In this document: piece by piece, positions 11,819 through 52,471 of the stretch | How positions within the stretch are numbered: position 1 is the first letter of the stretch | Layout of the letters: each line of letters begins with the position of its first letter | NCBI RefSeq assembly: GCF_016433145.1 | Contig: NC_058135.1 | Coordinates: 58,641,075 to 58,705,074, forward strand | Length of the DNA: 64,000 nt | From: Gracilinanus agilis | Taxonomy: Eukaryota | Direction of reading: 5' to 3' | Notes under the pieces: model-generated | The model's input: only the letters and a program-made list of their open reading frames with translations | Told to the model about the DNA's origin: nothing | The model's database searches: none | Position numbers and translations under genes: made by a program

Positions 11819-11895
11819 CACACATACTACAAAGAGAAAAGATGCCACTTGCTACTTATTTAGTGTATTAGAATTTTTTTTACAAGCTCATTTTT

Positions 11896-12241
11896 ACTTA
11901 TTTGTTTTAAAAATCCTTACCTTCCATCTTAGAATCAATACTGTATATTGGTTCCAAGATAGAAGAGCAGTAAGGGCTAGGCAATGGGGGTTAAGTGACT
12001 TGCCCAGGGTCACATAGTGTTGTGAGGAGGATTACTTAGTTATTATGATCCCAAGTGCAAGCCCTCTTCCTCCTTCCCCATTCCATTTGGAATTCTCCAG
12101 CCCTTCCTGTTAGGTCTCCTACATAATAACTAAGTAATCCTCCTCACAACAATAGCTAGGAAGAGTCTGAGGTCAGATTTGAACCATGGACTTTGCACCT
12201 CCAAGCATGGCTCTCAATCCACTGAGCCACTTAGTTGTCCG
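11896..12241 (-). mobile_element. SINE1_Mdo-type SINE, interrupted by a 134-bp TIR element
   Basis: SINE halves at 11896-12017 and 12152-12241; TSD acaagctcattttt at 11882-11895 and 12242-12255. Confidence 0.9.
12018..12151. mobile_element. MITE-like element: perfect 30-bp TIRs, TGT...ACA ends, 4-bp TSD (ATAG)
   Basis: tgttgtgaggaggattacttagttattatg (12018-12047) is the exact reverse complement of 12122-12151; atag at 12014-12017 and 12152-12155. Confidence 0.9.
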
Positions 12242-12255
12242 ACAAGCTCATTTTT

Positions 12256-13218
12256 TCAAAGAGCTTGAATAAGTACACCAACCAAACAAGAGAGGCGGTC
12301 AAAAACCTACTCAGGTGGTCAGCCCAGCTGTAAAACTATTAAACACATTACTCTTTTTCCCCCATGATAAGAGCAGTTGTTGACATGTGAACCTTGTTCA
12401 TCGAAATTATGTTCTCTTAAGCAAACAACAAATTTCACTCTTGACGCTATAAATGCCATTCATTTGCAATGATGGGGTGGCAGCCTCATCTGCAAGGGGA
12501 CAGCTGGGCCGGGGACTGTACAGAGGCCTCTGCCTCCCTAAGGTGCTCCATCACTGGGCTGAATACACACATGAAGGCTTTCTTTTTGCTCCAGTCTGTA
12601 CTTTTATGGCCCTTCATCAAAATCATGGACTTCCTGAAAACCGTCTCGATTTATGGCGTGCTGCCTTCCTTTATGCAGACACCATGGTGCTAAATTGCTG
12701 AGGCTGATACCTGGCTTTGTAAGTTTTTTGTTGTCAAGCAGACAAGTGTTTTCACTGGGTAAGACAAGGCTAGCTCTTGGTAATCTGAAGCAGACCATGA
12801 TGGTCCAGCAGAGGTGCTCAAAATGGGAATGAGATTCTAGGAAATGTTAGAACATGGGAGAAGCACCAGGATTCACAGCTCCAGCAAAATGGATATTTGG
12901 TTTCCAATATTTGCTCAAACGCAGATCTTTGCCAAGGGCCTGTCTCTACTCAGTGGCTTAAGGATACAAGATATATTTATCCACTGCATTTGGTAGCCTA
13001 GATCTTTTTCTGAAGTGGTTTAAAGATTTCTGTATTAAATGAATAGAGTTCTCATTGGTGCTGCTGATAGTTTTTACCCACTAGGATATAACCGTTGTAT
13101 TCTATGGCACAAAAGTTTGAGAACCAAGATGGGGAAACTTTTTTGAGAAAAGATCCACCATTTTTGAAGCACATAGTGGGTCTAAAATGGTGCCCTTGTT
13201 TTTTCTTTTGGAAGGGAC
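12256..13218 (-). pseudogene. candidate endogenous bornavirus-like nucleoprotein element (EBLN), decayed
   Basis: Colinear translated motifs VPSKRK, EKDL..NAV, HF..VNP, LIPIL, PRAS.LSYPV, TT..SAI*HH, IKEG..I..F..M, HKSTDW, PIIANE, WGKKSN, LVGV then stop; compared by eye with recalled BDV N; has stops, frameshifts and several deletions. Confidence 0.62.
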
Positions 13219-15349
13219 CTTCTGGCCAACTATCTCTAAGACTCACAAGCCAGAACTGAAGAACTAATGAAACAACAACTGTTCAGCTTTCCATAACAGG
13301 AACCTAAAAAATGAACTTTCCTTCTCCATTCTTCATTGGTCTAGTTTGGAATGCTATTAATTTTCTGTGTACTCTAAGATAGGAAAGATCTTATAACCCA
13401 AGGCTGAAGTTGCTACCAGCAAACAGTCTTCCTTAGTCCACTAATAAATTTCTTTTCCTTCAGACCTCCAATTCTTGGGGTCCACTGAGAGTCGAGATTC
13501 TCCTTAGGTTCTCCAGGAACCCAGACTGGTGAGCCTGCCCAACAGCACAGATCTTAGCAAGACATCACCAGTCCCTCCTGATCATTTCCAATACCTTCCA
13601 CAACCAATGTGCATCGCTTGTTTAGATAACATCAATGGCTGGCGAGAAATCTGACTCTCTTGTTAAGATGAAGAATAATATACACAATGACCTTTCCCAT
13701 CTGGATTCTTGTCCTGGTATTGATGTCTGAGACAATAAACACTTACTAGGTGCCTACTCTCTGCAAGGCACTGGGAAGACAAAGATTAAAAAACAATCAG
13801 AGATTAGAGAACCAAACAAAGAAATCACTGATCCAGTTTTCCTTTTTATGTCCCAAATTTTCCCTTAGCTACTTCTTTTCTCAAAACTGTCTTTAAGATC
13901 TTTATGGACAAGCAGGTTAAAAAGAAGGTAAAGTCCAAACCATGACCTCTAGTCTTTTTATAGAGTTTTCAACATGGAAGAAAAATTGTTTTGCTAATTT
14001 AACCTTAATAAAAAGCTATTTCAAATTGCATGTGCATCTAACTTAAAATAAGGAAAAGGCTGAATTATTTGAAGAAAGTGAGTCTTTGTCCAGATTGTCC
14101 AAATCAAATGTTTGAATGTCTAGACAGGAGGAGAACACATTTTAAATAATACTACACGTATACATTCACAAAATAATAGGATAGACATCAAGTAAATGTA
14201 ATATGTCATTTTTACCGGAGCTTTTATGTTCCTCATCTATGAAAGCTGTGTTTCTGTTTCTATTACAACTGCCATGTTTATACATAATGTCATATATAAA
14301 TAGTGAGTGGGAAATTCAAGAAATTCCTTATGATAACACCAGGAAAAAATGCAACATGACATAGGGGGTCATTAAAAAATACTGTCAGTTTCATTCATAT
14401 CTAAAAATGTAAAGATTACTCTTAACTTAAGTTTTGAACTTCATTATGTTCAAAATTAAAATGCAGACATTCCCATGTTCCTAATGCATTTGTGTGGGGT
14501 TTTTGTGTCAACTTAAATTAGGATTTTTTTCCATTAAAACCTTATGTATTACAGTCATGGTTTGGGACTCCTCGCATCTCTTTCCAGTTCTAATAGCTCT
14601 CCATCTCTGATACCCACACTCTAATTTCACTTTCCCCTAGCATTCTCCTTTTCAAACACAGGCCCACTATCCAACTTATTTTGATCTCATAGTTTCCCCA
14701 CATCTCATCTGCCAGCCAAGTATTTTGACCACTTTCTGATCATTTCCTATATATCTCACTTTCTTTAGGTCAAGAACTTTGCTTAAGGATACTTAAGAGC
14801 TGAAAAAGCTCTGCAAACACTTTGCAAGGTGTTTAGCAATAAAATAATAGACACTAAATCCCATCTCTTAGTTGTATAAGAGATCCCTCCACTCCCCGCT
14901 GATCTGTCCTTATGTCATTGTTAAGGAAAGATCATGCATCAGTCCCAGTCTAAGTATCCCTGATCGGTTTCTCTAGGGGATCAATCCTTAAAAGTTCTTC
15001 AGTGATAGAAGTATCTAGACAGATATTAAGATCACAAGAAGCCTCAGAAAAATGAATTTCCCCATAATGCTTTCAAACCTAAAATAATGCATATATCTCA
15101 GGATTCTGGTATCTATTTGTTTCCAACAAGAAAAAAATTATAAACTAGAATAATTATTGATCACTTGATTTGTACTAGGAGTAAAGAAAGAAGAGACCAG
15201 GTTCAGATGGAATCATTGAGAGAGAAGATATTACATATATTGCAATCTCAGAGGTAACTACTTCCAACCTGAATGCTACACTGATCCATTAGGTTTCAGG
15301 GCTAGAGGTACTCCAGAAGTCCATGTAGTGAAAATTATGGAAGTCGAGA

Positions 15350-50790: not shown

Positions 50791-52471
50791 AAAAATAAGT
50801 TTTTAAACCAATACAGTTTTATTCTAGTGGTCCACCAAAGATCAGAGATATGGAGCTGAATGGGATGGATAGATGGATGGATGAATGGATGGAGAGAAAG
50901 ATAGATGAATGAATGAAGCATTTATTAAGCTCCTACTATAAGAATAGCACTCTGCTAAATCCTATGGATACAAAAAGAAAAGTAAGATATATCCTTCTCT
51001 AAAGGAACTTATATTTTAATGGAGGAGGCAGCAAATATGGAAAATGTCCAATCTTCTCATTTAATAGCTAAAGAAATAGAAGCTGATAAAGGTTAGATTC
51101 ACAAAGTAGGATTTAAACCCAGGTCCTCTAACTCCAAAGCATGTATCTATTAACTCTTCTCTAAGGTGCATTTTCCCTCTAAACCAATCCACTGCTGTCT
51201 AGTAGAATATTGGAGATCTGCCTTTAATTTTGGACCTTTTTTTGTTCCATTTCTGACTTAATTTCTCCAGGTCTCAGTTTCCATAAGAACAAGAGGAAGG
51301 GTTAGAGGAAATGATCTCTAACATCCTCTCTAGGTGTAACTCTATGATCCTAATCACAGAGTCAGGTGTGCTCCATTGCAAAGAATTAATATTTGAACCA
51401 CTTTAAATAGTATATTATTGCTATTTTCAAACATATATCCAGGAAACTATATCCATGCTATAAAGTCATGATTCTGTGCTTTTTGGACATGTCAAACATG
51501 CCAAACAGATTTAGACTAGAAATTCAATTTCACATCTCATCAGGAAAATATTCCATTTACCAGCTTGACTCCTCACAACAGAGGATGAAAGTACATGACC
51601 CACTATTCCCATAAACAGGCTCCATTTTGTAAATGTTTAAGAATAAGGCAAGACTAGTAGCTTAGGAACCATTAGCATTTCCAAGAATATTACGTTAACT
51701 GTTCCTAAGTGTGACATTTAATTTTTAAAAGGGAAAGTGGTAATTAATTCACAGCCATTCTTGCTACCCAATCTGTTCTAAGCAATCATGAAGTCATACA
51801 ATCCTTTGGCCAAACACTGATATTCTCCTATGTAAATATAGAGAGTGCCAATAAATATGAAAAGAAAGGTCTCCTCCAGCTATGAAATGTTACAAATAGA
51901 TCTATAAAATGGAAGAAAGGCCATGATAAATCTTTTTGTGCAAATCTCTGAAAACAAAATTTTTCTGCTTTGTTCATCTAGTTTATAAAGTCCCTCTGAT
52001 AACGTTCCATGACCATCTTTTACATTACGTCATCTTGCATAAAGTAGTTCTGGATAAGTTTGGACTAGACAAGTTGAGCAACAACACCTCAAGATTAGCT
52101 ATTTTTGAAACAGGTTTTCTTGTTTATTTTGGTTTTTTGTTTCTTGCTTTATGACTTGTGACAAGGCCAAGGATTATAATGGCACCAAGATTTAGAGGTT
52201 AAAACCGTTCCCTTATAAACTACCCTGATGGATCTCCTGATACATAATAGCCCCCAAGCCAGAAGCTCTGATGGCTTAGGAAGGAGATGATTCTTCACCC
52301 AGGAGCACATTCTCTCAGAGGCACCAATACCAAACTAATGCAATAGCAGAAATGGCTTCCATCATCCTGTTGAATACACAACTTGAGCATTCTTCAGTCA
52401 CTTTTTAAAAGCAAATATAATAACAAAGACCTTGCTGAGAAATTTATTTATGTCTTTTTTTTAAATTTTAT

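Follow-up and report, generated by a model that had tools for sequence, protein, structure and literature searches.

A 134-bp insertion with perfect inverted ends in a marsupial SINE is most likely a rare LTR-retroelement accident rather than a Ginger-like MITE family

The window, a stretch of 64,000 nucleotides of Gracilinanus agilis DNA, contains at positions 12018-12151 an insertion that most likely originated in a rare LTR-retroelement accident rather than as a member of a Ginger-like MITE family. Our leading account, which we hold with roughly even confidence, is that an LTR-retroelement end, most likely of the ERV1/gamma type, was miscopied, integrated once and has been immobile since. 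An earlier note on this DNA, written from the sequence, had read TGT...ACA ends with a 4-bp target-site duplication (TSD) as the signature of a retroviral-type integrase and had offered both an LTR-derived miniature element and a Ginger-like MITE as its source. The signature stands and the LTR-derived miniature is favoured; the MITE option is not. The features of the locus, with strand and basis, are listed below in order of position.

11882..11895, plus strand: left 14-bp TSD of the host SINE (family D8, 100%)
11896..12017, plus strand: 5' half of the host SINE, marsupial SINE1-like (SINE alignment, copies in the window)
12014..12017, plus strand: left copy of the ATAG TSD (sequence and SINE alignment)
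12018..12151, no strand assigned: 134-bp insertion with TG...CA ends (direct sequence inspection)
12018..12047, minus strand: left arm, repeating in inverted orientation the final 30 bp of a high-copy repeat end (30/30 complement of 12122-12151)
12048..12065, no strand assigned: 18-bp joint, low-copy in its present arrangement (depth in run X1)
12066..12151, no strand assigned: 86-bp end fragment of a young repeat at very high copy number, the probable end of an ERV1-type LTR (depth and contigs of X1)
12122..12151, plus strand: right arm, the native end of the repeat (depth in X1)
12152..12155, plus strand: right copy of the ATAG TSD (sequence and SINE alignment)
12152..12241, plus strand: 3' half of the host SINE (same locus occupied in organisms B and C)
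12242..12255, plus strand: right 14-bp TSD of the host SINE (family D8, 100%)

The first and last 30 bases of the 134-bp insertion are perfect reverse complements (30 of 30 positions), the match being broken at base 31, and BLAST of arm against arm within the window returned E = 1.6e-10. The arms enclose a spacer of 74 nt in which 53 bases are pyrimidines, as the earlier note had described, and TGTTG is read at both ends. Apart from (CA)n and (AT)n runs, this is the sole perfect inverted repeat in the window with arms of at least 15 bp spaced by no more than 3 kb, and BLAST revealed no second copy of the 134-bp form within the 64 kb. A 12/12 match to the terminus at 51569-51580 stands without repeat context and was therefore attributed to chance. 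A transcript of the insertion is predicted to adopt the perfect hairpin that had been proposed for it, with a free energy of -54.9 kcal/mol (z = -11.2; 0 of 200 shuffles folded equally well), and the insertion as single-stranded DNA is also predicted to fold (z = -10.6). Rfam gave no match at gathering score across the whole window, which thus displays no known structured RNA or miRNA family.

The reality of the insertion was assessed against other copies of the host SINE. From 17 other BLAST hits in the window, eight of the longer copies were aligned; these are 68-78% identical to the host over the whole SINE. At the insertion point the gap is exactly 138 bp (134 + 4) in seven of the eight copies and 149 bp in the eighth. 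The exact 138-bp gap in these sister SINEs shows that both the insertion and its duplication of ATAG are genuine, as had been claimed. The host, which spans 11896-12241 and which we take to be a didelphid SINE of the SINE1_Mdo-like type, carries its own 14-bp TSD; the 134-bp element is therefore younger than the SINE, in agreement with the order proposed previously. The 6-bp target, represented by this one site, reads cATAGc. An L1-type insertion was rejected, as poly(A) is lacking, the TSD is 4 bp and the TG...CA ends are sharp.

Public sequencing runs were searched with 11900-14900. This listed 22 runs, of which four, DNA-type or unlabelled and all consisting of contigs, were aligned to 11990-12420 at 84% likeness. 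The listing named no RNA run as a carrier of this sequence, which counts neither for nor against expression. X1 (organism A) derives from the window's species, X2 (B) and X11 (C) from two close relatives, and X21 (D) from an outgroup. X1 contains 0.90 of 314 sampled words of 11900-14900 and displays no differences over 12211-12420. In total 10,506 X1 contigs were aligned, with individual alignments listed from eight; depth is present in all 29 bins, and none of the contigs listed spans the whole insertion. Summed contig depth is used here as an order of magnitude relative to the unique flank (27.6 in X1) and not as a copy number. Pieces of 29-30 bp are near the limit of the alignment method, and 215 X1 contigs fit two places. 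Contig joints that skip the element derive from other SINE copies and were not counted as evidence for an empty allele.

Over the right piece of the insertion the summed depth in X1 is 158,757-583,664, compared with 27.6 in the unique flank. Relative to single-copy depth, successive values across 12065-12139 are 8,670, 21,147, 19,775, 10,282 and 5,752, while the adjoining SINE block reaches 79,800. Seven of the eight listed X1 contigs start at 12066-12069 and stop at 12151-12158, with 6-11 differences, and 44 X1 contigs extend before 12066 with a GA-rich tract unlike the 18 bp found in the window (agreement 0.48; compared by eye, the two have only a 5-letter match at equal spacing). The common breakpoint at 12066, together with the end at 12151, identifies 12066-12151 as the sharply defined end of a repeat of very high abundance, present at ~6,000-21,000 times single-copy depth in X1, and shows that the left part of the insertion is not the normal continuation of this repeat. 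Variants at six sites, accounting for 6-96% of the depth in X1, suggest that the parent repeat has subfamily structure. The listed X1 copies, which are the divergent tail that assembles with flanks, differ by 7-13% from the window copy. Neither AATAAA, ATTAAA nor TATAA occurs in the 86-bp piece, which is all that is present here of any LTR. No exact match to the arm's initial 22 bases was found in viral contigs, metagenome contigs or the full texts of papers. A viral panhandle or copy-back genome as the origin of the insertion was dropped because the X1 contigs revealed that the arm is part of a host repeat.

The left side of the insertion has a different profile. Depth in X1 over the left arm is 25,327 and 18,678 (918 and 677 times single-copy) and falls to 1,409 just inside it, while the bin 12050-12064 stands at 51 times single-copy, or 0.24% of the core. 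The 18-bp joint has no match elsewhere in the window with fewer than four mismatches; it may be filler, come from another part of the parent or belong to a variant of a rare subfamily. With a joint depth of no more than ~51 times single-copy, against ~21,000 for the right part, the 134-bp form is low-copy, at 1 to ~50 copies, and the Ginger-like MITE family that had been suggested is not supported. The earlier note had itself stated that its proposal would fall if the arm matched the end of a catalogued LTR or MITE, or if the element were single-copy, and the results go a long way in that direction: the arm forms the terminus of another repeat, and the structure is single- or low-copy.

A TIR family would be expected to contain second ends in numbers similar to the first. 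Depth over the left arm is 0.16 of that over the right arm, and where the right arm meets the spacer there is no step in depth (164,618 at 12122, 162,722 at 12123 and 152,182 at 12125, all in X1). Together these values argue, indirectly, for a parent family that bears the 30-bp arm at one end, as in an LTR, and not at both. Depth over the left arm also fades inward (ratio of 0.74, below the 0.80 expected for even cover to 12046), a pattern that fits short contigs derived from the extreme terminus of the repeat. The letter at 12122 is uncommon in the family (no more than 3.7% of the depth), yet it is mirrored at 12047; this fits, weakly, a single molecule that templated both arms, the chance of coincidence being ~1 in 4 (~4:1).

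The relatives of G. agilis place the insertion in time. Organisms B and C both have this SINE's right half joined to the same unique flank, at 4-6% divergence: X2 record 18 (B) runs from the unique flank into the SINE half over 12156-12414 with 15 substitutions in 259 bp, and X11 record 13 (C) does so over 12157-12420 with 11 substitutions in 264. Depth in the bins 12035-12049 and 12125-12139 is zero in B, C and D; since the contigs of B and C end within the SINE, it is missing cover, and not a bridging contig, that indicates the empty site. As the arms are absent in B and C while the SINE half is orthologous, comparison of these sequences indicates that the end of the repeat and the 134-bp insertion probably arose in lineage A after the ~4-6% split. 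The parent repeat reaches ~40 times single-copy depth in C over 12080-12109 only (a core of 30-45 bp) and ~1 or less in B, and is absent from D; its abundance in A represents a large, recent burst specific to that lineage. The perfect 30/30 arms fit a young age, identity of this kind having P = 0.22 if each arm has decayed by 2.5% and P = 0.046 if by 5%.

Some further observations concern the abundance and the distribution of the two repeats. In A the parent repeat gives about a quarter of the SINE signal (21,000 versus 80,000 times single-copy depth). In the outgroup D, X21 record 32 matches the unique flank over 12268-12420 at 14% divergence and continues for ~156 letters toward the SINE without matching, which suggests that D has no SINE here; this type of SINE is ~30-fold scarcer in D.

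The TG...CA ends, the 4-bp TSD and the lineage-specific burst indicate that the parent is probably an ERV1-type LTR, a label that rests on the ends, one TSD and abundance. The insertion possesses the TG...CA termini and, at its one site, the 4-bp TSD of an ERV1 LTR; as a whole it is not an intact LTR. A 4-bp TSD is described as typical of gammaretroviruses (PMC4643047), and marsupial ERV1 solo LTRs are reported to have 4-nt TSDs, in an account in which class I ERVs contribute 60% of the opossum RT-domain ORFs (PMC4408412). These solo LTRs, exemplified by a Tasmanian devil ERV1 related to opossum LTR104d, have TG...CA termini and a 4-nt TSD in common with the insertion, and both they and the parent repeat are lineage-specific expansions with subfamilies (PMC4408412). 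However, the Tasmanian devil solo LTRs are given as ~600-700 nt long with two different ends (PMC4408412), whereas the insertion keeps 86 bp of one end and carries part of that end again, inverted, on its other side.

Such a structure could arise if, during reverse transcription, a growing cDNA strand came off its template and then copied the 30 nt at its own start; alternatively, two like cDNA ends might have been joined. The result would be a short duplex with an identical CA-3' integrase attachment end on both sides, which the integrase of the element could insert with its normal 4-bp stagger. The fold-back strand would have to become a full duplex before integration, and the 18-bp joint would require a second switch or filler. 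Retroviral-type integration is described as the joining of two 3'-OH ends in concert by integrase (PMC3104679). The integrase of Ty1 is reported to insert non-Ty DNA that merely ends in TG...CA, and composite Ty1 inserts were ascribed to template switching during reverse transcription (PMC2939329). These yeast insertions resemble the one described here in that a non-standard duplex with TG...CA ends is flanked by the usual TSD. In contrast, the Ty1 events, as reported, took place in laboratory yeast and involved a 5-bp TSD and foreign DNA (PMC2939329), while the present case is a natural germ-line insertion of an element's own end, inverted. As the insertion contains no primer-binding site, polypurine tract, direct repeats or excising enzyme, it cannot replicate by itself and should be dead after integration. 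Literature searches, which included PMC5381603, returned no description of the element or of a natural mammalian LTR fold-back; the parent repeat may be catalogued.

The main alternative is that an ordinary solo LTR (or a longer copy) was inserted with duplication of ATAG and later collapsed within the chromosome. A replication fork entering the native TG... end would have jumped to the opposite end by way of the short terminal inverted repeat, replicated 30 nt there and come back near 12048-12066, the rest of the LTR being deleted. On this route the direct TSD would stay intact, and perfect arms with a minority letter shared by 12047 and 12122 would follow, without any call on an unusual integrase substrate, and a 6-bp repeat at 12060 and 12099, which may mark slippage (shuffle frequency 0.03, found post hoc), hints in the same direction. 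We nevertheless consider the collapse unlikely, since a single locus would have had to undergo two or three switches in the brief interval after its lineage parted from B and C (4-6% divergence) and the homology at the native left end is assumed, whereas the chances for template switching are far more numerous in reverse transcription.

The termini of the insertion also invite comparison with integrase-type DNA transposons. Ginger1 is defined by TGTNR termini, TIRs of ~40-270 bp and a 4-bp TSD of CCGG or CCGT/ACGG, and Ginger2/TDD by TIRs of ~50-180 bp, a 4-bp TSD and a preferred target of RTATAY, in the description of these groups (PMC2836005). In common with both, the insertion has TGTNR termini (TGTTG at each end), a 4-bp TSD and long perfect inverted ends. 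It differs from them in its shorter TIR, which at 30 bp lies below the range of either group, in the absence of a transposase, in arms that are not family-wide by depth, and in its target site, as ATAG is neither CCGG nor CCGT/ACGG, and cATAGc (one site) is not RTATAY (a preference). With both the TIR length and the target site outside the Ginger definitions, the insertion was not filed as Ginger.

That the parent itself is a TIR transposon of a young integrase type is, in our judgement, improbable. It would account for the Ginger-like TGTNR ends and 4-bp TSD, and for the 215 X1 contigs that fit both arms; a non-autonomous Ginger2 of 252 bp is on record (PMC2836005), and opossums are reported to have acquired hAT transposons horizontally (PMC5857283). 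The 30-bp arm and the target site do not agree with such a parent, however, for the reasons given above, and neither do the left-arm depth of 0.16 with no inner-border step or the joint at 0.24% of the core, which stand indirectly against long TIRs at both ends. Furthermore, organism C has the inner core without the end, which is the reverse of the conservation seen in TIR elements, and mammalian DNA transposons are described as rare and mostly ancient (PMC5857283).

The insertion is also out of keeping with a MITE of another superfamily. A MITE family should comprise numerous uniform copies of the entire element, whereas here the joint is present at no more than ~51 times single-copy depth and the right part at ~21,000, which leaves room for 2-50 copies at most. 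The TSD rules of hAT, Tc1/mariner and piggyBac MITEs exclude a 4-bp duplication other than TTAA. Those elements are likewise short, non-coding and equipped with TIRs that fold into a hairpin; the insertion differs from them in its 4-bp non-TTAA TSD and in not having been amplified as a unit.

It is quite improbable that the 134-bp form is a small family of up to ~50 copies, in which an LTR end turned TIR element was re-amplified by an enzyme that recognises its ends. The 51-fold depth at 12050-12064 leaves room for such a family, and the two ends are perfect. That depth is, however, entirely explicable by chance overhang of the adjacent bin, which is ~240,000 deep, no second copy lies in the 64 kb, and retroviral integrases do not excise, while the piece carries no reverse-transcription signals. 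Taking this possibility together with that of a young marsupial integrase-type DNA transposon as the parent, at the 10^4 scale, we doubt that either holds; if one did, it would be new for mammals. Finally, an assembly error that created the inverted left arm at a high-copy repeat is very improbable: no listed contig spans the insertion and X1 contains 0.90 of the 314 words of 11900-14900, but depth is present in all 29 X1 bins, and a clean direct TSD, a gap of exactly 138 bp against sister SINEs and a separate 18-bp joint would be unusual for a collapse or a chimera.

If the insertion is indeed a miscopied LTR end, it would represent a natural germ-line case in which a retroviral integrase accepted a tiny substrate with two like ends, and an LTR end would have become a perfect TIR in one step. 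It would then provide raw material for the route from LTR to DNA transposon that is discussed for Ginger1, a 'reverse evolution' proposed in the same account (PMC2836005). In mammals, the combination of TIRs and a 4-bp TSD does not alone prove a DNA transposon. A single dead copy carries little biological weight, and the more useful lead may be the parent repeat, which climbed from almost nothing to the abundance of a SINE in a single marsupial lineage within ~5% divergence.

Two small folds were noted in the 86-bp piece, either of which may be a pause or switch site. One is a palindrome with 6-bp arms at 12080-12093, inside the core common to organism C, and the other a small bulged hairpin at 12108-12123 extending across the right arm's inner border.

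The earlier note had placed an EBLN next to the insertion. Six-frame translation of 12240-13700 revealed no Pfam family, its three minus frames gave PDB matches only at E 0.47 or worse, and one 80-aa ORF had no usable Atlas match; the EBLN label is thus unconfirmed within 12240-13700, and it plays no part in the verdict on the insertion. For a retrocopy with its end at the T-run near 11873-11881, no TSD could be detected. The ~1.4-kb stretch at 12256-13630 is possibly the EBLN that was meant, and the host SINE adjoins the T-run at 11873-11881, a minus-strand A-tract that forms the edge of this stretch.
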